In this document: positions 1,548 through 18,188 of the stretch, one piece after another
Layout of the letters: each line of letters starts with the position of its first letter
Numbering within the stretch: position 1 is the stretch's first letter
Translations under genes and position numbers: made by a program
Virus record (IMG/VR): IMGVR_UViG_2671181094_000006
Reading direction: 5' to 3' (one strand)
Length of the DNA: 18,188 bases
From: a virus
Lineage: Duplodnaviria; Heunggongvirae; Uroviricota; Caudoviricetes
The notes under the pieces: model-generated
Database searches by the model: none
What the model was told of the DNA's origin: nothing
What the model saw: only the letters and a program-made list of their open reading frames with translations

Positions 1548-1907
1548 ATGAGACTAACCAGCCGCAAAAAGACGATACTCAGCTACTTCGAACCGGATAA
1601 CCGCGACTGGGTGACGGGTGAGATCGGCGCACCTCCCCTTGATGTATCCGGCGTGGCGTACCTGCTGTATGGGACAGGCCTCGAAGACAACCGGCACTGG
1701 CTCGAATCCACCAGACGAACGCTGGAAGCAATGGTGAAAGATGGGTTGCTGGAGAGGTACCGGAGCAGGGAGGCGCGGAGTATCGTTATGGGCGGCGAGA
1801 CGACCGCTACCGTTGTCCGTTACGGCCTGCCGGGTACCGTTTCAGTGGTACGCGATACGGGAGGTGCAGACGGCACGATAGAAGGCGAATATGTGCGGGT
1901 CGTTTAA
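1548..1907 (+). CDS. Winged-helix DNA-binding protein, module A (119 aa); paralog of 5930-6289
   Basis: The ATG at 1548 follows AAGGAA. The layout is H1 KKTILSYF, H2 VSGVAYLL, H3 STRRTLEAMVKDGLLER, wing ATVVRYGLPG. It is roughly 70 percent identical by eye to the 5930-6289 product. Confidence 0.8.
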   Translation: MRLTSRKKTILSYFEPDNRDWVTGEIGAPPLDVSGVAYLLYGTGLEDNRHWLESTRRTLEAMVKDGLLERYRSREARSIVMGGETTATVVRYGLPGTVSVVRDTGGADGTIEGEYVRVV

Positions 1908-2095
1908 CGACGTGGATTATCTGGCCTCTTCCACTGGTAGGCTGGTGCCGTCATCCTCCGGCGGTGCCGTTCTTTAGCAGCGAGCGTTCCCGCAACCCTG
2001 CAACGTAACTCCAGCATATCGGTGGCATTCAGCTCATTCCCCTGCAGGCGGGCCAGCTCTTCAATTACCGCCTCGATTTTCTTCTGTTTTAACAC
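1904..2095 (-). CDS. Small protein (63 aa) with a conserved C-terminal APAYQWK(R/K)P..PRR tail, module A
   Basis: GTG start with AGGAAG 8 nt upstream. The C-terminal 15 residues match the 6945-7130 product. Its stop codon overlaps the stop of the convergent 1548-1907 gene within TTAA (1904-1907). Confidence 0.6.
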   Translation of the reverse strand: MLKQKKIEAVIEELARLQGNELNATDMLELRCRVAGTLAAKERHRRRMTAPAYQWKRPDNPRR

Positions 2096-2201: not shown

Positions 2202-2789
2202 TTAATCGGTATCGTCGGCCAGGGCATACAGCAACGAAGGGATCACTCTCCGCATGGCTGTTTCTTCGGTTTCATCGCTCATGAGAGTCAGGGTGTAATC
2301 CCGGCACTCGTAAATCACATCATATGCAGACAGGCCGAACGCGCCGCCCGCAATGATCTGCCCAATTTCAACATCTGGCGTTTCAACAATCGACAGCCGG
2401 TAGCCGCCGAACGTCACAGGAGGGTTATAAGGCCCTTCGCTTACAAACAGCTCTACGGCCTTTGCAGCAACCTGGGCTCGTTCGTCCGGGTCCACCCCGG
2501 ACACCTTACCGGCACCTGACACCATGATGCGCTTAATCTCCGCAACACTCATTTCCACCAGCGTATACCCCTGCACCTCACCAGCTGGAGCAGGCTTGGT
2601 TTTACCCCTGGCATTCTTCGTACGCGGGTCACTGGCGCTGCGGTATCGTGCCAGATAAGTATCACAGGCCTCCTGGTCAATCTTCCCGTCAACCCGCGCC
2701 GGAAATCCTTCATGACTCTCCCAGTTATACAGTGCCTGCCGGCTCATTCCGGCATGTTTTGCGTACTGGCTGACGCTCATTAGTGACAT
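2202..2789 (-). CDS. Nu1-like (small-terminase-type) HTH protein; candidate packaging-redirection (Rpp-like) or small terminase subunit
   Basis: The ATG at 2789 has AGGAG 7 nt upstream. The N-terminus MSVSQYAKHAGMSRQALYNW...FP resembles the lambda Nu1 N-terminal winged HTH (KKQLADIFGASIRTIQNWQEQGMP). A repeat field lies immediately upstream, as cosB does for Nu1. Confidence 0.7.
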   Translation of the reverse strand: MSLMSVSQYAKHAGMSRQALYNWESHEGFPARVDGKIDQEACDTYLARYRSASDPRTKNARGKTKPAPAGEVQGYTLVEMSVAEIKRIMVSGAGKVSGVDPDERAQVAAKAVELFVSEGPYNPPVTFGGYRLSIVETPDVEIGQIIAGGAFGLSAYDVIYECRDYTLTLMSDETEETAMRRVIPSLLYALADDTD

Positions 2790-2826
2790 AATTTTTCTCC
2801 TGCCTCATTGTCACCGGCTGGCCAGT

Positions 2827-3033
2827 GTGTCAACCCGCCGGCGGGAAACTGTCAATCAAACGTCAAGGGATCAACCGCTTGACACTTTTTTCTGTCAACT
2901 TGACACTTTTCGGGCTGAAAGTGTCAATCAAACTGTCAATCAAAACTTTCACGAATTCCCCTGCATCACGCGCCGCCTCTGGACCTTAACAACCTGACAA
3001 CAAAAAAGTGTCAAGTGTAAAGTGTCAATCAAA
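2827..3033 (-). repeat. Repeat field upstream of the Nu1-like gene; candidate cosB-like binding sites or a promoter cluster
   Basis: Four exact same-orientation copies of TGTCAATCAAA lie at 2850, 2922, 2934 and 3023. Extra TGTCAA copies lie at 2828, 2893 and 3009. Inverted TTGACA copies lie at 2879 and 2900. A TGTCAAcTTGACA palindrome spans 2893-2905. A perfect 12-bp palindrome CCCGCCGGCGGG spans 2834-2845. Confidence 0.55.
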
Positions 3034-3137
3034 TTGAAAACCTGCAGCTACAAAAACACTGCGGCGCGCAATGCCCGTGCCTTACAAAAGTCTCAGGAAG
3101 GACCCATTTTTTCTGAGGGCCATTCCATAGTTATCAC

Positions 3138-3563
3138 TTAATGAACTTCCGGCATCACAGGCCATTCAATATCTGGGGCATCATCAGGGTTAACACGACT
3201 GAGCAGAACGGAGTATTTTTCCCAGTGTTCCAGTCGCGTTTTTTCATCCAAGGTAGCCATTCCGTATTTCACAGCACGCGCTAAAGGGACGATAACGTCC
3301 TCAGCCTTTGTACGTTGCCGCTCTTTTTCAGCCCCAGCCAGCCTGGATAACTGTGCTTTGGTCTGTGGAGGTACATCGACCCACGAGGGCAAGCCATCAG
3401 CCCCTACCCCCCTTTGCTTACCTTCTGGTGGAACCCTGGTGAACTCGTGAAAAACGTTATCACTGACTGCTATAAGGTCCGCTGGTAGAGAATTGTTGTC
3501 CCGATAAGCTGGTAATAATTCATCAGGGTAAAAACACGCCGTTGACGCACTAAAATGATACAT
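3138..3563 (-). CDS. Tail fibre assembly chaperone (Tfa family)
   Basis: The start MYHFSASTACFYP is typical of Tfa proteins. The C-terminus HWEKYSVLLSRVNPDDAPDIEWPVMP matches the conserved Tfa tail (W.KYRVLLNRVD...APDIEWP). The start lies 2 nt after the fibre gene stop. Confidence 0.85.
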   Translation of the reverse strand: MYHFSASTACFYPDELLPAYRDNNSLPADLIAVSDNVFHEFTRVPPEGKQRGVGADGLPSWVDVPPQTKAQLSRLAGAEKERQRTKAEDVIVPLARAVKYGMATLDEKTRLEHWEKYSVLLSRVNPDDAPDIEWPVMPEVH

Positions 3564-3565
3564 GA

Positions 3566-4099
3566 CTATTCCCCTATAGCTAACCATCCAAAATTATCTG
3601 CATTACCCGAACTGCCGCTGATCCAGCCATATGCACGGAAACCGGAATTGGAATCATTGGTTACGGACACGTAACGATTTCCATCTGCGTACTTCGTAGC
3701 AACAATAGCAATAGCCCGCTTAGGAAAAGGTATCGGATACTGAACATTACCTGATGGTGAATTAATAGTGGCAGTTCCCATTTGAACAATAATATTTTTC
3801 TTTTCACCTGATGGTGTTCGGGTAGGAATAATACAGTAACCCTGTGAAGTAAGGGCACCTACGATGGGTTCAGATAGAAGGGCGGTGATCCTCAACTCAT
3901 CAATAACTTCGTTTAACTGACCATCATTTTCAGGCTCAAGCTGGCGGCCAGAACCCTCTACCACGCCCACCATCTCACGCTGCCAGGTATTAAAAATATC
4001 GGCAACAAGAATTGTTGGTGATACCCCATTAGCAACATTACCTTGTGTAAATTCCCCATTACTATCAGCAGTATCAGTGACTGAACTTATCTTACGCAT
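3566..4099 (-). CDS. Short tail fibre / receptor-binding tip protein (177 aa)
   Basis: The N-terminal motif FTQGNVANGVSPTILVADIFNTWQREMVGVVEGSG..L.....QL resembles the conserved tail-fibre motif (T...A.WLN..QEEL.NVI...G). The C-terminal GYCIIP...IIVQMG...VQYPIPFP...FGWLAIGE resembles gp53-like tail-fibre C-terminal domains. A Tfa gene follows directly. Confidence 0.8.
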   Translation of the reverse strand: MRKISSVTDTADSNGEFTQGNVANGVSPTILVADIFNTWQREMVGVVEGSGRQLEPENDGQLNEVIDELRITALLSEPIVGALTSQGYCIIPTRTPSGEKKNIIVQMGTATINSPSGNVQYPIPFPKRAIAIVATKYADGNRYVSVTNDSNSGFRAYGWISGSSGNADNFGWLAIGE

Positions 4100-4127: not shown

Positions 4128-4595
4128 CTATATAGAAAGCGTATCTGCCATACTCACCGGCTCGATATACTTCTCAAGCGCTAACAGAGCGGCGTTAAAA
4201 CCAGCACGATAGCCGTTTGTGTCACCGTTAATCATGCTGTGTTGAAATGCCGCCATGTTCTGGTCTTCGGCATCAAGGAACTCCCAGCCAGGATAAACTT
4301 TCTCCATAGCCCGCCGGGTAAAACGACTGAGCTGGCGAGCGCTGCCTTTTAGTCTGGCAATAGCCTTCTGATGTGGGATCCCTTCCGCGATAAGATGAAA
4401 TGCCTGTATCGGATTTTGTTTTGCCGCTTTGCTCACCGCTATCAGATGCGCATCAGAATGGGGGCATTCAGGGAGTTCCTCTTCTTCAAGCGATTGCTGA
4501 AGCTGGTGCATACGCTGCATACGGCGCCCGGAAAAGCCATATGCATGCGCATCAGGTTGCTGCTTGTTGAGGTGCTGAAAGTTCATAACGCTCAT
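4128..4595 (-). CDS. Hypothetical protein; paralog of the central domain of the 4607-5383 product
   Basis: It shares a ~95-aa domain with the upstream gene: AVS..AK.NP ... F....ME...P.WEF.D.E ... D.NGY.A....AL.AL.K..EP. The start may instead be the ATG at 4586 (MNFQHL), which has better GGAG spacing. Confidence 0.75.
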   Translation of the reverse strand: MSVMNFQHLNKQQPDAHAYGFSGRRMQRMHQLQQSLEEEELPECPHSDAHLIAVSKAAKQNPIQAFHLIAEGIPHQKAIARLKGSARQLSRFTRRAMEKVYPGWEFLDAEDQNMAAFQHSMINGDTNGYRAGFNAALLALEKYIEPVSMADTLSI

Positions 4596-4606: not shown

Positions 4607-5383
4607 TCAGAGAGGAACCTGCGATTTTAGGAGTTCGGCTTCTCGTGCCGGCCCTTCAATCTTGCCATTCACCCGACGGGTATCCCCCGGCAGGCTCACA
4701 CCAGATGCCCGGATACGATCGTTACGGCGTGCAGCAGCCTGCGCGACCTCTTCCCGGTACTCTTCGTCAGCCTTACGGCGAGCATTCACATTCTGAGGTG
4801 ACATAGGGTCATAGTCGTTTTGCATCTTAGATGCCTTGCTGGCTAATGCCTTAATCTCGTCTTCTGTCAGAGGCTCTTCCATCTTCTTCAGCGCCTTCAG
4901 AGCGCTACTCTGGGCAGCAGAGTAACCATTTGCATCACGGTTCTGCGTTGAAAACGTTAGCGCCGAGCGAGCTTTCTCTTCGTCATCCTGAAATTCCCAG
5001 GTCGGGTCATTCTCTTCCATAAACTTTTGGGTAAACACAGAAAGCGCCATCGGCGACGATGCCAGTTGCAGCTTTATTTTCTTCGAAGAAAGTTCCGTTT
5101 CCTTCAGCAAACGAACCGCCAGAACCGGGTTATTTTTTGCCTCCGGGGAAACCGCGACATTGTGGCCGCGACTGTGCTGCTTAGGTCTGGCGATCCGGGC
5201 GTCGTCACTGTCCAGTTTCAGTGGCACATTCCCGTTATCAGACTCGCCTTTCGTTTTGGTTTTGCCTGACAGATGCGAGAAATCAAACATGGATGGGTTT
5301 TCCTCAGATAGTTGGGGCTGTTTTTTCTTATCTTTCGTACCGAACGCTCTTAGCGCCCATGCGGGTAACGTCATTAACGGCAT
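4607..5383 (-). CDS. Hypothetical protein (258 aa), charged and Lys-rich, with a domain paralogous to 4128-4595
   Basis: The ATG at 5383 has GAGGAAA about 7 nt upstream. The alternative ATG at 5290 would remove the overlap with the 66-aa ORF. Confidence 0.75.
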   Translation of the reverse strand: MPLMTLPAWALRAFGTKDKKKQPQLSEENPSMFDFSHLSGKTKTKGESDNGNVPLKLDSDDARIARPKQHSRGHNVAVSPEAKNNPVLAVRLLKETELSSKKIKLQLASSPMALSVFTQKFMEENDPTWEFQDDEEKARSALTFSTQNRDANGYSAAQSSALKALKKMEEPLTEDEIKALASKASKMQNDYDPMSPQNVNARRKADEEYREEVAQAAARRNDRIRASGVSLPGDTRRVNGKIEGPAREAELLKSQVPL

Positions 5384-5929: not shown

Positions 5930-6289
5930 ATGAGAATGACCAGCCGCAAAAAAGAGATACTCAGCTACTTTGAACCGGATAACCGCGATTGGGTAACAGG
6001 TGAGATTGGTGCGCCGCCGTTCGATGTGTCGGGTGTGGCCTACCTGCTTCATGGCATGGGATCATTCGGTAAACGCCACCAGCTCGAATCAACCCGGCGT
6101 ACGCTCGAAAGCATGGTTGCCGGTGGACTGCTTGAGCGAATGACAGTGTATGAATCCCGTCAGGTACGGCGCGGCGGTGAAACCAGCGCAACAGTCGTGC
6201 GCTACGGTTTACCGGGACAGTGTGCCGTTGTGCGAGATAGTGGCGGCGCTGATAACGCAATACCAGGTGAATACATGCGGGTCAGTTAA
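5930..6289 (+). CDS. Winged-helix DNA-binding protein, module B (119 aa); paralog of 1548-1907
   Basis: MRMTSRKKEILSYFEPDNRDWVTGEIGAPPFDVSGVAYLLHG... The ~40-bp leader and operator (TGTATGATAG..CACAATAAGGAA) are conserved with copy A. Confidence 0.8.
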   Translation: MRMTSRKKEILSYFEPDNRDWVTGEIGAPPFDVSGVAYLLHGMGSFGKRHQLESTRRTLESMVAGGLLERMTVYESRQVRRGGETSATVVRYGLPGQCAVVRDSGGADNAIPGEYMRVS

Positions 6290-6824
6290 GAGCCTGCAAT
6301 CTGTCGTTGATGCGGCTCAGGTCGTAAACCCGGCGTTCAATATCCAGCATCAGGAAATTGTGGATCTCGGCCTGCTCAGGATTATCAGACTCTCTGGCCT
6401 GTAATAGCAATTCATTGTATCCATGCAAGCCGCCTGAGTTTTCCGCCGGGGTGGTGCCTTTCCCACGCAGGCAGCTAATGGGCTGATTACTCGTATCGTG
6501 TGTTTGCTTCTCCAGCACAATGACGCAATCCCACCAGTCGCCAAAGTCATACGTGTAAACCAGCTTGTCACCCTCATTCTGGAGCGCTGCCCATAGTGGT
6601 GTGATTGCCGCGTTACCCATGCTTTCACCCTCACCCCATACGCGATACTCGCTACCTAGATCACCTTTACGGCCTTTCTCGAACATATACAGATGTTCGT
6701 CATTCCAGCCAAAAGCCAACTGGATCACCGCGTGAAGTTCACTAAAGGGGATTTGCTCTGGAACCAGCACACGCCGCCATATTGGTGGTTTGCTGTCTCG
6801 GATGGTTATCTTTAGCTGGTACAT
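6282..6824 (-). CDS. Plasmid pRiA4b ORF-3-like (PF07929-type) protein, 180 aa
   Basis: From the ATG at 6824, MYQLKITIRDSKPPIWRRVLVPEQIPFSELHAVIQLAFGWNDEHLYMFE matches the family signature (vyqLkv.L....PpIWRr..Vp....L..LH..Iq.a.GW.d.HL..F). The track ORF starts further upstream, at 6872. The 3' end overlaps the convergent 5930-6289 gene by 8 nt. Confidence 0.8.
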   Translation of the reverse strand: MYQLKITIRDSKPPIWRRVLVPEQIPFSELHAVIQLAFGWNDEHLYMFEKGRKGDLGSEYRVWGEGESMGNAAITPLWAALQNEGDKLVYTYDFGDWWDCVIVLEKQTHDTSNQPISCLRGKGTTPAENSGGLHGYNELLLQARESDNPEQAEIHNFLMLDIERRVYDLSRINDRLQALN

Positions 6825-6944
6825 GCAAATCCTGAATAAATGCGAATCGGAAGGATAACGATACTGACGCACTCACAATTCTGTAAAGGTGAATAAAGGT
6901 AATTTGCTTAATACGCATAAGTTACATGTGGAATAATCCCATAT

Positions 6945-9180: not shown

Positions 9181-9284
9181 TTTGCGAATACCTCGAATTA
9201 TTAGTTTTGCTAATGAAGATTACCCGGCTCCGTCTTATTGTGGGACACCTTCGCCAGATTTTTTTGTATATAAACAAAAAAGTT

Positions 9285-9541
9285 GGTGGTTCAGGTGGTT
9301 CAGTGGTTCAGTACCCCTCTAGGCCGCGCCATCTCTGGGTTTTGCTGAACCACCTTTTAAATTTATCTGGTGGTTCAGTCGCCCTTCTTGGTGGTTCACT
9401 GCCAGCCAGTGAAAATAATCCGTTTCTCTCTGGTGGTTCAAAATACCCGTTTGGTGGTTCAGTGGTGGTTCACTTTCTTACAAAAAAACATTATAAATCA
9501 ATAACAATTACTTACTGAACCACTGAACCACCTGAACCACC
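9285..9541. repeat. Iteron-type replication origin of the island
   Basis: There are twelve copies of (T)GGTGGTTCA. A triple tandem at 9285-9311 and its exact 27-bp reverse complement at 9515-9541 bracket five direct copies (9369, 9390, 9432, 9453, 9464) and one inverted copy (9346). An AT-rich tract spans 9476-9514. The field lies between the primase-helicase and ssb genes. Confidence 0.8.
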
Positions 9542-9567
9542 ACAAAAAACCTCGCACGTGAAAAAGA

Positions 9568-12345
9568 TTATTGCTCTGGCTGGCTTTCCTCCCCATCCGG
9601 CAGGAATTGCAAAACGTAAACGTTAATCTGCCTCCCCTGAATGCGCGGGCTTTTCCTCTGAAATTTTTTTCCGTCTGCCGAAGGGGTAAGCATCCCCGAT
9701 TCTTTCAGGACGCGGGCCACCTGCTGCCTGTTAAACCCCTTAGCAATATCCTTATCGAAAGTGTCGGGGAACGTGTAAAACGTTATCGGTGAATCGTCAT
9801 GATTTCCGCGCTGCCTGTATCCAGCCAGATTATGAATCGGCAGGCTGGCGGGGTCGTAAGGCAGCGGCGCGAATCGACTCAGGCCATAGGCATTTAAAAA
9901 TGCCTCCGCCTGCTCGATGATCTGCTGGTGCTCTTTGTTCCCCGTGCCGAACTCTTTTAGCCATGCGTTATAGGCGTGCTGTATCGCATCCCGGCACGTT
10001 TGAGCATCCCAGCCAGTAACCACGCCACCCATCAGTAAAGCGGCCTCCAGAATGGCAAATCTTGCCCCTACACGGTGAACCTGTTCCCCATAGTCGGCAG
10101 GAATTAGACTGCGCCAGCGGGCCTCACACTCACGAACGGCATCAATCGCCTGTTGCTGGTGGTCTGAAAGCCATCTGATCCACTCCCTCCCGGCAGCGCC
10201 ATGATGGTTCTGGTAAGCGTCTTTCAGCGCGTCGGCGTGGTCTCTCCCTGTCTGGTACTCATGAAAGCGCACCGCCTTACTCAGCGGGATATTCAGCAGT
10301 CGCACCAGTTGCCCCGCTTTTGTCTTGCGTCCTGCGGTGGAGATGAACGTTTCTAAATCCATTTCCCCGGTGCTGATTGCCACGGTGCGCCAGCGTTTCA
10401 GATCCCGGTTGCCTCCTTCCTTTGCTCCCTGCAATTTCCCCACGCCGTTAAACAGGGCATAGGCAGACTGAGCAACGCTTATCGGGTCTGCGCCCTGTCC
10501 GACTTCATCCAGTGGCATCAGCCCGTCATTGTGGGCGGCGGCCTCGTTTATCAGCCCCAGCGCCGTTCCGTACCACGTCAGGCGCAAGGCATCAGGGTTG
10601 CCATAAAGACTGCTCGCCACGTTCTGCGTGGTTGTTTTCCCGGCGCTCGATTGCTCGTAAAAATGAATCCCGAAGCCGTCACGCTCCGCCAGCCCGATTA
10701 ACGGTGCTGCAAGTGCGGCGGCAATGCCTGTCATCATCGCGTAGTTACCGTATGCCAGACGCGCAACACTCTTACGCCAGCTCTCTGAGGTTCCCGCCAC
10801 GGTGTACCCGGCAGCGGCAGAACTGCGGCCACTGAATAAAACGGGTTGTGCAGGTGCGCCGATAATCTCCCCGTCCGGCATGATGTATGCCCCGCACTGC
10901 CAGCCAGTAGCGTGAGCAACACGCCACAATTCACGTGAGCCGCTACGCTGTAACCAGTCAGCCAGAATCGCCCGCAAGCTGCTTTTGGTGGTGACGTTAA
11001 CCCCGCCCGCTTTCAGGGTGCGCCAGCCTTCGCGCTCCCCGATATCAGCCAGGGGGATAGCCGCTGTTGTCGGTATGCCTGCGCCAAAGGCCAGCCAGCG
11101 TAATATCAGATACTGATCCTTGTCGTCCCGCCCGGTGCCGATAACGTCCATCGGTGAGGCCAGCCAGCTTTCATTGTTGATAATCTCGCCGCTTTCCTTG
11201 TCCACTTTAGGCGTGATCCAGTAAACGCCATCTTTGCGGCTCTCAATGCGGGGTTTTAGCGGGTCTTTCTCTGGCTGGTCAGTTTTACCGCCCTCAATGG
11301 CCTGTAGTTGTGGTTTCACGCATTCCCCCTGCGGCTGGTACATCGAATCATTAAACGCAGCCGTAGCGACTTCCAGCCCGTGTTGCTGGTGGTAGTCGTT
11401 CCAGTCAGCTTTGCTGTCAGTCGGTGGCAGCGATACCCAGCCAGCCACGGATAAAGCCGCTTTCTCTGCGGCCTCCTTCCCGATGTTGGTGGCTCCGGTT
11501 TCGGAGGCTGCTGTAGGGTGGTCGTTATCTGCGGCGATAATAATTTGCGACTGCGGGTGTTTCCGGCGCATTACTCCGGCAACGTGGATCAGGTTCCCGG
11601 CGTCAATTGCCGCCACTGTGAGCGCGTCAGGCCGCATCTGGTGAACGGACAGGGCGGTAGCCAGCCCCTCGGCAATCACGACGCTTTGAGGCCGTTCCAG
11701 CGCGTTTACGGCGTAATATGCCCCGCGCTTTGCCGATCCCTTAATGAGTCGCTTTTCTCCCTGCGGGGTGATGGTCTGCGCGGCTGTGACTGCGCCGGAT
11801 TCATCCACCAGCTCCAGCAATAACGAACCATCGGGCATAAGCGGGTATTTAAACCCGGTCAGCCCTTTTGATTGCAGGTACTCAGATTCTCCCTGTATGG
11901 ATCTCAGGCGCATTCCGGTATACAGACGGGCAAACGTAGCCCTTCGCTGATCTGCGTCCTCTGCTGCCTGTTTCTGGCGCTCCTGCTCACGCTGCTGGCG
12001 GTCTGCGGCTAACTGCCTCTGTCTCTGGCTGGCAGCGTCTGGTGCTGATTCTGCGGCCCGGTAATCAATACCCAGCACATCAGCGGCAAGCTGTGCCGCC
12101 TCCGTGGTGTCGCAGTTGTTCACCTTCTTAATCAGGTCTAAGCCATCGCCCGCGCCGCACTGGTTGCAGATAAAGCTGCCGCGCCCGTTGTCGTCGAATC
12201 TGAAACGGTCTTTCCCACCACATGCAGGGCAGGGGGCATGGCGGCGCGATGAATCAGGAACGTCGATAGACAATCCGGCCAGCACATAAGGCCATCGCCC
12301 TGCTGCGGCGCTGGTCACTTCGCGGATAAGGTCGATATTACGCAT
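9568..12345 (-). CDS. Primase-helicase replication protein (zinc-binding domain + Toprim + P-loop NTPase), P4-alpha / PICI Pri-Rep type
   Basis: 925 aa. Zinc motif CPACGGKDRFRF...CNQCG. Toprim residues VVIAEGLATALSV and IIIAADNDH. Walker A SSAGKTT and Walker B LMPLDEV. GGGAGGT SD. Confidence 0.95.
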   Translation of the reverse strand: MRNIDLIREVTSAAAGRWPYVLAGLSIDVPDSSRRHAPCPACGGKDRFRFDDNGRGSFICNQCGAGDGLDLIKKVNNCDTTEAAQLAADVLGIDYRAAESAPDAASQRQRQLAADRQQREQERQKQAAEDADQRRATFARLYTGMRLRSIQGESEYLQSKGLTGFKYPLMPDGSLLLELVDESGAVTAAQTITPQGEKRLIKGSAKRGAYYAVNALERPQSVVIAEGLATALSVHQMRPDALTVAAIDAGNLIHVAGVMRRKHPQSQIIIAADNDHPTAASETGATNIGKEAAEKAALSVAGWVSLPPTDSKADWNDYHQQHGLEVATAAFNDSMYQPQGECVKPQLQAIEGGKTDQPEKDPLKPRIESRKDGVYWITPKVDKESGEIINNESWLASPMDVIGTGRDDKDQYLILRWLAFGAGIPTTAAIPLADIGEREGWRTLKAGGVNVTTKSSLRAILADWLQRSGSRELWRVAHATGWQCGAYIMPDGEIIGAPAQPVLFSGRSSAAAGYTVAGTSESWRKSVARLAYGNYAMMTGIAAALAAPLIGLAERDGFGIHFYEQSSAGKTTTQNVASSLYGNPDALRLTWYGTALGLINEAAAHNDGLMPLDEVGQGADPISVAQSAYALFNGVGKLQGAKEGGNRDLKRWRTVAISTGEMDLETFISTAGRKTKAGQLVRLLNIPLSKAVRFHEYQTGRDHADALKDAYQNHHGAAGREWIRWLSDHQQQAIDAVRECEARWRSLIPADYGEQVHRVGARFAILEAALLMGGVVTGWDAQTCRDAIQHAYNAWLKEFGTGNKEHQQIIEQAEAFLNAYGLSRFAPLPYDPASLPIHNLAGYRQRGNHDDSPITFYTFPDTFDKDIAKGFNRQQVARVLKESGMLTPSADGKKFQRKSPRIQGRQINVYVLQFLPDGEESQPEQ

Positions 12346-15648: not shown

Positions 15649-15933
15649 TTAGGCCGATTTACGGCTATATGGGTTATTGACGTTAGGTACAGCAGGGGGA
15701 TTACGAACCCACCAGAGCACATCGGACAAAAGCCAGGCGCAGCTATTGCGGCCAAAGTGGCAGCGCGGAGGAAAGCGGCCCTCTTGCTCCATCTTCCAAC
15801 GACTGGAGCGGGAAAGGCTTGTGATTTCGCCACATTCATCTTCACGAATCCGGCGATCAAACTTGAAGCCGTACTCCTCAAGAAGGTTACGGCGTTGTTC
15901 GGGGTTAGGTGGGGTAAAGATAATATTGTTCAT
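15649..15933 (-). CDS. alpA: AlpA-family transcriptional regulator / excisionase-like HTH protein
   Basis: I chose the ATG at 15933, with GGAGG 5 nt upstream. RRIREDECGEITSLSRSSRWKMEQEGRFPPRCHFGRNSCAWLLSDVLWWV fits the AlpA pattern (LSRST.Y....G.FP.P...G.R...W..S.V..W.). Confidence 0.85.
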   Translation of the reverse strand: MNNIIFTPPNPEQRRNLLEEYGFKFDRRIREDECGEITSLSRSSRWKMEQEGRFPPRCHFGRNSCAWLLSDVLWWVRNPPAVPNVNNPYSRKSA

Positions 15934-16029
15934 ACTGCCTCCACTGTTTCTAGGTTTGTGGAGGTTATTGTTATCAATCAAAAAGAACTTGTCTGAAATA
16001 TTCCGGAAAATTAACGGAATTTCCGCAGA

Positions 16030-16961: not shown

Positions 16962-18188
16962 TTAATCTCTATTCGCTACAGGTAACAGAACCACATTTTT
17001 ATGATTACCCGCAAGAAGTTCTAAACGTTCATGCCATTTGTTCAGCGCATCCAGCTTCTCCGGCAAGTACAGGCTACGGTTATATATAGCCATGACGCCC
17101 GGTAGAGCATGACCCAGCAGCAACTCTACAATATGCGGTGCTATGCCCATATTGTTTAACCCCGTGGAGAACGTGCGCCGCAGATCGTGAAGTGTCCACG
17201 GCTCGTTATGATGGAAATCTTTAAAAAGCCGTCGCCCTTTCAAAGATACAGCTTGCCGGGTGCGCTCTTCTCCCAGCAGCAGGCCTGTTTTACCCGTCTC
17301 GCGTTTTAACTCTTCCAGCCACGGGCGTATAGCTTCAGGGATTGATCTCACGATTTTCTCGCGGGTTTTGCTGTGCTCTTTCGGGACTGTCCAAATCCAC
17401 GAGGTAAAATCCCACTCCGACCATCGAGAGAGGCGAACTTCCATCGTTCGAGCGCCAAACAGCACCAGCATTTTGAGAAGACGTGAATAATACGGCTGCT
17501 GATCATCGCTGTCTGTGCAGCGCCATACATCGGCCAGCTCGCTATCTGACAATACGCGGTCACGTTGACCGGATGGCTGGCCTACATCCTGAATGGTGAG
17601 AAAGGCTAGAGCATCACTGGCGGCATAGCGGCGAACCTTGCAGAAGCGTAACGCCTGTTTAGAAATCTGGAACATGCGGCCGGCGGTCATGGGTTTGGTC
17701 AGATTTATTTCATCAAAACAGGCCACCCAATGACGGGTTTCACATCTGGTGAGGGGATAACGACCAAGGCGCGGGTAAATATGCTTGCGTAGCTGTGCCC
17801 TTACCAGCTCCTCATCGCTGCGCTTTCTCCTGGCGTAGTTCACCAGCCAGTATTCGAGAGCATCCTGTACTGTCACAGGTTTAAGCGTTTCTTCGGTGCT
17901 CAGTTCAAGCTCTGTTTTTGGATCAAGACCACCAGCCAGCCACTGGCGACACTTTTCCCGCTTTTCTCTCGCCGCTTTTAGCGACAAATCCGGGTAACGG
18001 CCAAGCGTTAAACGTTCGAGTTTGCTACCCCTTCCGCCCAATCGGTAAGCGAACACCCAGCTAACGTTACCTTGCTTCGAAACCTTAATGCTCAGTCCTT
18101 CACCATCGGCAATCATGATCGGTGCTTCACGCTCAGAACCCTGCAGCGCTTTTAGCTTTTTGTCGCTCAGTTTGTTTGTACCAGCCAT
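16962..18188 (-). CDS. P4-type tyrosine integrase (full length; the start codon is the last three bases of the window)
   Basis: N-terminal arm-type domain (LSDKKLKAL...GEGLSIKVSKQGNVSWVFAYRLGG...LGRYPDLSLKAAREK). Catalytic residues ARTMEVRLSRW, HDLRRT, LLGH, and Y in AIYNRS. Confidence 0.95.
   Translation of the reverse strand: MAGTNKLSDKKLKALQGSEREAPIMIADGEGLSIKVSKQGNVSWVFAYRLGGRGSKLERLTLGRYPDLSLKAAREKREKCRQWLAGGLDPKTELELSTEETLKPVTVQDALEYWLVNYARRKRSDEELVRAQLRKHIYPRLGRYPLTRCETRHWVACFDEINLTKPMTAGRMFQISKQALRFCKVRRYAASDALAFLTIQDVGQPSGQRDRVLSDSELADVWRCTDSDDQQPYYSRLLKMLVLFGARTMEVRLSRWSEWDFTSWIWTVPKEHSKTREKIVRSIPEAIRPWLEELKRETGKTGLLLGEERTRQAVSLKGRRLFKDFHHNEPWTLHDLRRTFSTGLNNMGIAPHIVELLLGHALPGVMAIYNRSLYLPEKLDALNKWHERLELLAGNHKNVVLLPVANRD

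Follow-up and report, generated by a model that had tools for sequence, protein, structure and literature searches.

A probable cos packaging site with private TerS-type recognition repeats in a Gram-negative satellite island (IMG/VR record IMGVR_UViG_2671181094_000006)

Introduction

Which sequence marks the DNA of a phage satellite island for packaging by its helper, and which protein reads it? The question is raised by IMG/VR record IMGVR_UViG_2671181094_000006 (Caudoviricetes), whose full 18,188 nt, referred to below as the window, contain a dense field of short repeats directly upstream of a gene for a 195-residue protein. To our knowledge, cos-type packaging of satellites over a helper is known in detail for the Rpp family only, with lambda and phi80 as helpers. 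A first-pass annotation, made from the letters of the window alone, had interpreted the field as the cos region of a helper-dependent island. The repeats, palindromes, start codon and GC-rich 12-mer that it listed are all present where it placed them, and its outline is borne out by the identity of cosQ and cosN with those at a mapped phage end. We find that segment 2827–3112 is probably the cos of the island, in which a private cosB, predicted to be bound by a small-terminase (TerS)-type domain of the island's own 195-residue protein, lies beside a cosN of helper type at which cutting is predicted. The strategy itself (a retained helper cut site combined with an altered recognition site and a reader to match) is already known from Rpp/cos-type satellites; what is new here is the reader-protein family, which is not Rpp. 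The locus follows this strategy with different parts and in a different helper lineage, and it names a probable helper family for these islands.

The cohesive-end site

A megablast search of complete Escherichia coli genomes with the region returned four island relatives and 54 other genomes that match positions 3030–3112 alone, with ~90% identity, at an unannotated spot. In one of the corresponding prophages (L001), the matching spot precedes the TerS gene by 150–233 nt, and this gene belongs to a lambda-type head module (terS, terL, gpW, portal and S49 protease). Comparison of the whole region with the phage collection by blastn gave no match, because sequenced cos phages are linearized at this site, which splits the match. 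With the intergenic region of prophage L001 as the query and a looser threshold, the same collection yielded Serratia phage vB_SspM_BZS1 (BZS1) and Citrobacter phage phiNP. The linear BZS1 record starts with GCATTGCGCGCC, which its annotation calls 'cosL; left cohesive end', and its last bases are ATGGGTCCTTCCCTGCACTTTTGTAAAGCACGG. According to the BZS1 paper, PhageTerm analysis of virion reads gave GCATTGCGCGCC as the 5' overhang, with a PCR across the prophage cos as a check (PMC7556043).

The window contains a single exact copy of GCATTGCGCGCC, located 274–285 nt ahead of the ATG of the 195-residue protein and not lambda-like in sequence. On the gene (minus) strand the order is GGGTCCT-N24-GCATTGCGCGCC, with the same 12-mer and the same spacing as in the joined BZS1 ends. 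Across the predicted cut this strand reads ATGGGTCCTTCCTGAGACTTTTGTAAGGCACGG, GCATTGCGCGCC and GCAGTG in succession, and the predicted nicks bracket GCATTGCGCGCC and would leave a 5' overhang. The GGGTCCT heptamer is found at the same spacing at the right end of BZS1, in phage phiNP, in E. coli prophages L001 and L026 and in all 17 of the island loci compared (17/17). A cosQ element is expected about 30 nt upstream of cosN, and the 31 nt observed here compare with 30 nt in the lambda-type cos1 of the island EcCICFT073. By homology with the mapped BZS1 end and the equality of the flanks, GCATTGCGCGCC is assigned as the predicted cosN of the island.

The first-pass annotation had instead placed cosN at GAGGCGGCGCGT (2969–2980 on the gene strand, 180–191 nt before the ATG). 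This string is not conserved in relatives and sits in the most variable spacer of a nine-island alignment (A5; see below), and it was rejected as the cut site in favor of GCATTGCGCGCC, which lies outside the 2790–3060 interval considered in that annotation. The spacing of ~190 nt between cosN and the gene, which had been likened to that of lambda, is seen in the helper-type prophages, with the ATG at +193 to +196, but in the island the ATG is at +286. The same spacer contains, on the plus strand at 2963–2974 and overlapping GAGGCGGCGCGT, an inverted near-copy of the cohesive end (GCATCACGCGCC, 10/12 identical). This near-copy is at chance level, as 3.4 matches with two mismatches are expected in the window, and the string is kept in close relatives only.

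The cohesive end is not the same in every island. At the Brenneria corticis locus (L021, ~2675–3003), GGGTCCT and the TTGACAC repeats are kept and the cohesive-end position differs (CTGGGCGACGCC); this position also varies in loci L024, L012 and L015. It seems that the cut site changes with the local helpers and that cosB remains coupled to the protein of the island. A rule for annotating such islands would read GGGTCC, N25, a 12-mer and repeats from +47, where positions, here and below, are numbered from the first base of the cohesive end.

The repeat field

The repeats upstream of the gene are far above chance. The 11-mer TGTCAATCAAA occurs in four exact copies on the plus strand (at 2850, 2922, 2934 and 3023), compared with an expectation of 0.01, and none of 200 shuffles reaches four (0/200). 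All six GTGTCAA heptamers of the window fall within 2827–3028 (four direct and two inverted), and the TGTCAA/TTGACA hexamer is present nine times, seven times in gene orientation and twice inverted. Four of the sites have the long form TTTGATTGACA. A palindrome, TGTCAAcTTGACA, spans 2893–2905; the 12-bp palindrome CCCGCCGGCGGG at 2834–2845 is a real string that relatives do not keep. At the cosN-proximal end, three heptamers are arranged in tandem with a 7-nt period (TTGACAC-TTTACAC-TTGACAC), and the phages have two copies with the same period at this place.

The position of the first repeat is constant across nine islands, two prophages and two phages, regardless of the sequence of the hexamer. 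It is +47/48 in the nine island loci (TTGACA in one class and TTCACA in another), +48 in prophage L001 (GTAACA), +47 in prophage L026 (GTCCCA) and +49 in BZS1 and phiNP (GTAACA); at locus L024 it is +48 (TTTACA). In known systems, R3 extends from +50 to +65 in lambda, from +48 to +60 in N15 and, as proposed, from +48 to +65 in phage-inducible chromosomal islands (PICIs; PMC9026076). The first TTGACA of the window, at +47, and the first phage repeats, at +47 to +49, are on the gene side of cosN at about the position (+48) expected of TerS-type repeats. The DNA similarity between islands and phages comprises cosQ, cosN and the conserved spacer and stops exactly at the first repeat. Beyond this point the layout remains parallel, with tandem copies by cosN, a spacer, and then direct and inverted copies toward the gene.

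Alignment A5 comprises nine islands from at least seven genera, among them Raoultella, Morganella, Edaphovirga, Rahnella, Brenneria and Hafnia. The repeat sites are invariant in it while the spacers diverge, which indicates selection on the repeats. Inspection of the conserved and variable spacers by eye for an integration host factor (IHF) consensus gave no convincing match. On the basis of its positional equivalence with phage cosB, the TTGACA(C) field is predicted to be the private cosB of the island.

The 195-residue protein

The gene starts at an ATG at 2787–2789 on the minus strand, with AGGAG ahead of it, and its product is predicted to consist of a TerS-type winged helix–turn–helix (HTH) domain followed by an orphan C-terminal domain. 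Residues 1–65 match PHROG 57 (phrog_57, terminase small subunit; 7.9e-8), but only at profile positions 10–76 of 199, and comparison of the island-family profile with a phage TerS profile (99.6% probability, E 1.8e-23) aligns residues 2–75 only. The helper TerS proteins, unlike the 195-residue protein, match phrog_57 end to end. In both structure and sequence, the domain is closest to small terminases and not to regulators, and its predicted recognition helix comprises residues 17–24 (S16-R-Q-A-L-Y-N-W23). A TerS-type C-terminal half is complete in P0118 (locus L024), a phage-type homolog whose N-terminal 97 residues are 56% identical to the island protein. An apparent TerS homology of the island family through its C-terminus was rejected, as the whole-length alignment is an artefact of including P0118 in the island alignment; when P0118 is removed, the alignment stops at residue 75. 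The central oligomerization region and the C-terminal region that binds the large terminase subunit (TerL) in TerS proteins lie beyond this point.

The C-terminal domain is strongly conserved within the family, and no relatives outside the family were found among 1.84 billion representative proteins. The AlphaFold2 (AF2) model, with a moderate overall predicted local distance difference test score (pLDDT) of 67.7, contains short helices and strands and no long terminal helix. The family has 118 detected members in the Enterobacterales, with hosts that include Escherichia, Klebsiella, Raoultella, Yersinia, Serratia, Pectobacterium, Morganella, Providencia and Salmonella. Apart from P0015, which one source calls a MerR regulator, the members are unnamed, hypothetical or uncharacterized. 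Four entries of ~190 residues with partial coverage (P0101, P0106, P0108 and P0112) were considered as other domain fusions and rejected as frameshifted or read-through gene calls. Judged by these comparisons, the family is one that has not been described before and appears to be set apart from Rpp.

Co-variation of recognition helix and repeat

The motif of the recognition helix predicts the repeat in 18 of 18 loci: SRQALY occurs with TTGACAC (nine loci), SRR(A/S)FY with TTCACAC (eight loci) and SRTAFY with TTTACAC (one locus). Within each field all copies carry the class-specific base, and the variable residues, 18 and 20, fall within the predicted helix. Among the 106 family proteins with a readable helix, 78 belong to the QAL class, 26 to the R(A/S)F class, one to QAI and one to TAF. 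Near-identical C-terminal backgrounds can carry either of the two main classes (Raoultella and Yersinia provide examples), which suggests that helix and repeats move as a cassette. The concerted change of all repeat copies is a stronger argument than mere association, and the helix of the present protein is predicted from this co-variation to be matched to TTGACAC. The earlier proposal that the island has its own cosB-type specificity, read by the 195-residue protein, is supported as far as the TerS-type domain and the helix/repeat match are concerned; the binding itself is a prediction. The reading of cosB is difficult to study in vitro for lambda TerS, and the three natural alleles, each combining a helix change with a single-base change in every repeat copy, offer a ready-made system for studying how a TerS-type winged HTH reads cosB.

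Comparison with known packaging systems

In EcCICFT073, cosQ and cosN resemble those of lambda, cosB differs, and a complex of RppA with the helper TerS reads the island cosB (Fillol-Salom et al., 2019; PMC6739421). In CFT073, rppA was identified through its similarity to RppC (5.3e-31), and the DNA immediately ahead of the gene is cos1, with GGGTCCT, GGGCGGCGACCT and a further ~90 nt up to the ATG. The present island resembles EcCICFT073 in keeping the helper cosQ and cosN with a changed cosB, in having a gene for a TerS-like winged HTH protein directly downstream of cosB, and in its int-alpA-pri-ori...cos layout. The Rpp analogy drawn in the first-pass annotation is valid at this level, as the order cosQ-cosN-cosB-rppA is the same, but does not extend to homology of the proteins. 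Searches with phmmer and with profiles against the PDB, which contains RppC (6HLK/6HN7), gave no match to Rpp at E values up to 10; BLASTP of the 195-residue protein against RppA found nothing, and hhalign gave 33% over 27 HTH columns. Rpp proteins have 139–144 residues and a coiled-coil dimerization helix, whereas the present protein has 195 residues and an orphan globular C-terminal domain. A TerS-type winged HTH and a cos with a cosB unlike that of the helper are common to both systems, and the long coiled-coil helix is absent from the AF2 model. The systems differ further in helpers and cohesive ends (lambda/phi80 and GGGCGGCGACCT versus BZS1/phiNP-type and GCATTGCGCGCC), in cosB (~90 nt with a single proposed R3 versus a ~200-bp field of at least nine sites) and in the natural specificity alleles of the 195-residue family. 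EcCICFT073 also has a true second, inverted cos, whereas only the chance-level near-copy at 2963–2974 is present here.

Lambda cos and gpNu1 show the same order of elements (cosQ, a 12-nt 5' cohesive end, repeats near +48 and the gene for the binding protein), the same GGGTCCT cosQ heptamer and a similar mixture of direct and inverted R sites. Lambda differs in the sequence of the cohesive end, in having three R sites compared with many more here, and in the position of the ATG (~+190 compared with +286). In addition, the self-assembly and gpA-binding parts of gpNu1 are absent from the 195-residue protein, and no terL follows its gene. With BZS1, phiNP and the related E. coli prophages, the island has in common the identical 12-nt end, cosQ heptamer and spacing, a spacer conserved to +45 and the position of the first repeat. 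It differs from them in the repeats and in what follows: BZS1 and phiNP have three GTAACA copies with the ATG at +75, prophage L001 has eight GTAACA copies, prophage L026 has GTCCCA, and in all of these full-length TerS and then TerL come after the repeats, unlike in the island. In the Staphylococcus aureus pathogenicity islands (SaPIs), which are pac-type Gram-positive PICIs, the satellite likewise supplies its own DNA-recognition subunit so that the helper TerL packages satellite DNA. SaPI TerS is a full-length homolog of phage TerS and works by headful (pac) packaging, whereas here only the DNA-binding domain is TerS-like and the system is of cos type.

The probable helper

Three independent links, namely the cos core, a tail fibre encoded by the island and a tail-sheath neighbor at a related locus, point to BZS1/phiNP-like helpers, and temperate phages of this type, with a lambda-type terminase and a contractile tail, are the probable helpers of the island. 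When the 177-residue tail-fibre-like protein was compared with the phage collection, the sole full-length match was a BZS1 tail protein (39%), followed by the N-terminus of the phiNP tail collar fibre (51%). The E. coli island relatives lack the fibre/chaperone pair. The fibre might serve as a receptor-binding protein that the satellite provides to suit the helper tail. Locus L031 (6019–9600 of IMG/VR UViG_2597490017_000006) combines an island-type cos and a QAL-class gene with adjacent myovirus tail genes, among them a sheath gene with 68% identity to its BZS1 counterpart and 66% to the phiNP one, and may be a satellite that sits within its helper prophage. It also encodes a DNA-circulation protein, and a match to a minor tail protein (PhageMin_Tail) is weak and below threshold.

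Co-residence is in line with these links: of four complete E. coli genomes that contain the island, three have a prophage of the BZS1/phiNP-type terminase family, compared with 59 of 5,426 overall, although two of these three could belong to one clone. In strain 2022CK-00450 (NZ_CP104681; island at ~69.7–80 kb, prophage terS at 2,737,335), cosQ–cosN is the same in prophage and island, while cosB is GTCCCA in the prophage and TTGACA in the island.

Proposed packaging mechanism and alternatives

In the proposed mechanism, the cutting module (cosQ GGGTCCT, cosN GCATTGCGCGCC and ~30 nt) would have been copied almost unchanged from BZS1/phiNP-type phages and would be nickable by the helper TerL. 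The private cosB, starting at +47 with at least nine TTGACA(C) sites over ~200 bp, would take the place of the helper GTAACA/GTCCCA sites. The 195-residue protein would coat this cosB through its DNA-binding domain, and its C-terminal domain would capture the helper terminase. TerL would thereby be placed on the island cosN and island concatemers would be packaged, starting toward the gene, with the helper's own cosB going unread. There is roughly an even chance that the partner of the C-terminal domain is the helper TerS, in an Rpp-like hetero-oligomer, and direct contact with TerL is a reasonable but less favored option; a partner of some other kind appears unlikely. The missing TerL-binding region of TerS favors an Rpp-like adaptor role, and the C-terminal domain is very highly conserved among hosts with different DNA-binding domains in their helper TerS proteins, which would fit a conserved target such as TerL equally well.

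Several observations weigh against this mechanism. Lacking the TerS oligomerization and TerL-binding regions, the protein, as predicted, cannot act as an ordinary TerS; its C-terminal domain has no recognizable partner-binding feature, and the most conserved stretch of this domain (residues 116–150) is modeled with a pLDDT below 50. The domain and the repeats adjoin, so that co-inheritance as one recombination block partly explains their association, and the number of independent helix/repeat switches is small. No helper is visible within the window, and in the fourth E. coli genome with the island, megablast detects no prophage of the BZS1/phiNP-type family. Finally, the repeats come as close as 44 nt to the ATG, and the field could in addition have a regulatory effect on the gene.

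This last point is in line with a different interpretation, in which the repeats are operators or promoter elements and the 195-residue protein is a MerR/Xis-type regulator of its own gene or of late genes with no role in packaging. The winged HTH fold class is common to MerR regulators and excisionases, one homolog carries the MerR label mentioned above, and TTGACA is the sigma-70 –35 consensus. The first-pass annotation had raised the related caveat that the field might be a stack of –35 boxes, but a search for –10 partners at 16–18 nt from the gene-strand TTGACA copies gave none; the sole promoter-like match is on the other strand, and the count equals that expected from shuffles. The distance from the mapped cohesive end to the start of the field moreover equals that of the TerS-binding repeats in related phages, and the nearest relatives of the domain are small terminases. 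A purely regulatory function is accordingly improbable, although packaging and regulation might be combined in one field. The repeats could alternatively be the iterons of a replication origin bound by an initiator, as ordered direct and inverted short intergenic repeats are typical of such origins. The window, however, has a separate iteron field just past the end of the primase gene, the reported location of Gram-negative PICI origins (bioRxiv 10.1101/2022.07.18.500453), whereas 6.5 kb separate this gene from the TGTCAA field, which adjoins the cohesive-end site, and an origin at this position is very hard to credit.

Packaging could also proceed through a helper TerS of TTGACAC specificity that itself reads the island cosB, with the 195-residue protein acting only as an interference decoy that is dispensable for island packaging. 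Rpp proteins (RppA, RppB and RppC) are known to double as interference factors (PMC6739421). The phage-type TerS P0118, with its closely similar DNA-binding domain, is found with TTTACAC repeats in the same layout, and phages of closely related specificity therefore exist. Yet none of the 118 homologs is a phage-type TerS with a QAL helix, and a pattern scan of IMG/VR for phages with a TTGACAC-type cosB returned island-type loci only. Prophages co-resident with the island read GTCCCA or GTAACA, and the island helix tracks the island repeats at every locus compared. We regard the decoy role as having little probability, and we retain the reading of a private cosB recognized by the island's own protein. 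A broader version of this reading is tentative at best: these islands might represent a second, independently evolved class of satellite packaging specificity, in which a TerS DNA-binding domain joined to a new domain seizes the helper TerL directly. In such a class the cassette would be exchanged between islands as a unit, its target would be switched by one or two helix residues (Q18/L20, R18/F20 or T18/F20) paired with one base (TTGACAC, TTCACAC or TTTACAC, respectively), and the island's own tail fibre would re-target the hijacked virions. If this were true, the 195-residue protein would be a minimal, non-homologous substitute for TerS.

Island context and other features

The island lies between hpt (1–537) and the tyrosine integrase gene, with nearly all genes on the minus strand; features of the window are listed in Table 1. 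Besides the integrase, AlpA and primase, it encodes a Bro-N protein, SSB and PerC. The Gram-negative PICI layout consists of int, alpA and pri in one direction, with ori downstream of pri, within 10–20 kb and with no full set of virion genes (bioRxiv 10.1101/2022.07.18.500453). The window has this layout, and by gene content and order the element is classified as a satellite island of Gram-negative PICI type. No large terminase, portal or capsid gene is present in the window, in which the sole open reading frame (ORF) of more than 408 residues is that of the primase. The iteron field next to the primase gene is probably the replication origin of the island. In Serratia and Pectobacterium, the gene for the homolog of the 195-residue protein likewise comes last in a small island that bears a primase gene and lacks virion genes.

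Table 1. Features of the cos region and of the island (window coordinates; cosB sites are also numbered from the first base of the cohesive end)
Feature	Position	Strand	Remarks
cosQ-like heptamer GGGTCCT	3099–3105	-	First base 31 nt before first base of cohesive end
Predicted cosN, 12-nt cohesive-end sequence GCATTGCGCGCC	3063–3074	-	Identical to first 12 nt of BZS1 record
cos core in common with helper-type phages	3030–3112	-	cosQ, cosN and ~30-nt spacer (TAGCT...TTTTCAATTTG); ~90% identity
Predicted island-specific cosB, ordered TTGACA(C) sites	2827–3036	-	Repeat counts; position match with phage repeats
cosB hexamers, gene strand	3023–3028, 3009–3014, 2934–2939, 2922–2927, 2893–2898, 2850–2855, 2828–2833	-	+47, +61, +136, +148, +177, +220, +242
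cosB hexamers, inverted	2900–2905, 2879–2884		+170, +191
Variable spacer inside cosB	2948–3004	.	Least conserved columns of A5; no conserved element
TerS-type winged HTH DNA-binding domain (predicted)	2565–2789	-	N-terminal 75 residues; profile matches
Orphan C-terminal domain	2202–2564	-	~120 residues and stop codon; invariant motifs PPVTFGGYRL and AGGAF-L
Caudo_TAP tail-fibre assembly chaperone	3138–3587	-	Follows fibre gene, directly beside cos
Tail-fibre-like protein	3566–4099	-	177 residues; Gp53-like C-terminal domain
Iteron field GGTGGTTCAG	9284–9542		7 direct and 4 inverted copies; directly downstream of primase gene
Primase	9568–12345	-	925 residues; Zn-ribbon/Toprim/DUF927
AlpA	15649–15981	-
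Integrase	16962–18188	-

In place of a terL gene, the gene for the 195-residue protein is followed by a 63-residue ORF and then by island or flank genes; in Serratia and Pectobacterium, too, no terL gene follows. The 63-residue ORF (1904–2095, minus strand) is conserved and matches phrog_7271, a family whose function is not known. In Pectobacterium (L030, 10653–10898), an 81-residue fragment follows the gene instead, with a weak match to the nuclease domain of a large terminase of a different type. On the far side of the fibre gene, two adjacent minus-strand ORFs (4128–4595 and 4607–5383) have no family match and, as judged by eye, a common C-terminal motif (W-EF-D ... NGY ... AL-AL-K). ORFs of similar size precede cos in relatives of the Serratia and Yersinia types (L028 and L031), and the two ORFs are candidates for other helper-manipulating functions. 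Two paralogous ORFs on the plus strand, opposite to that of the island (1512–1907, 131 residues; 5930–6289, 119 residues), are 82% identical in DNA sequence over 125 nt; they have no family match, and one of them adjoins a PRiA4_ORF3 gene (6282–6872).

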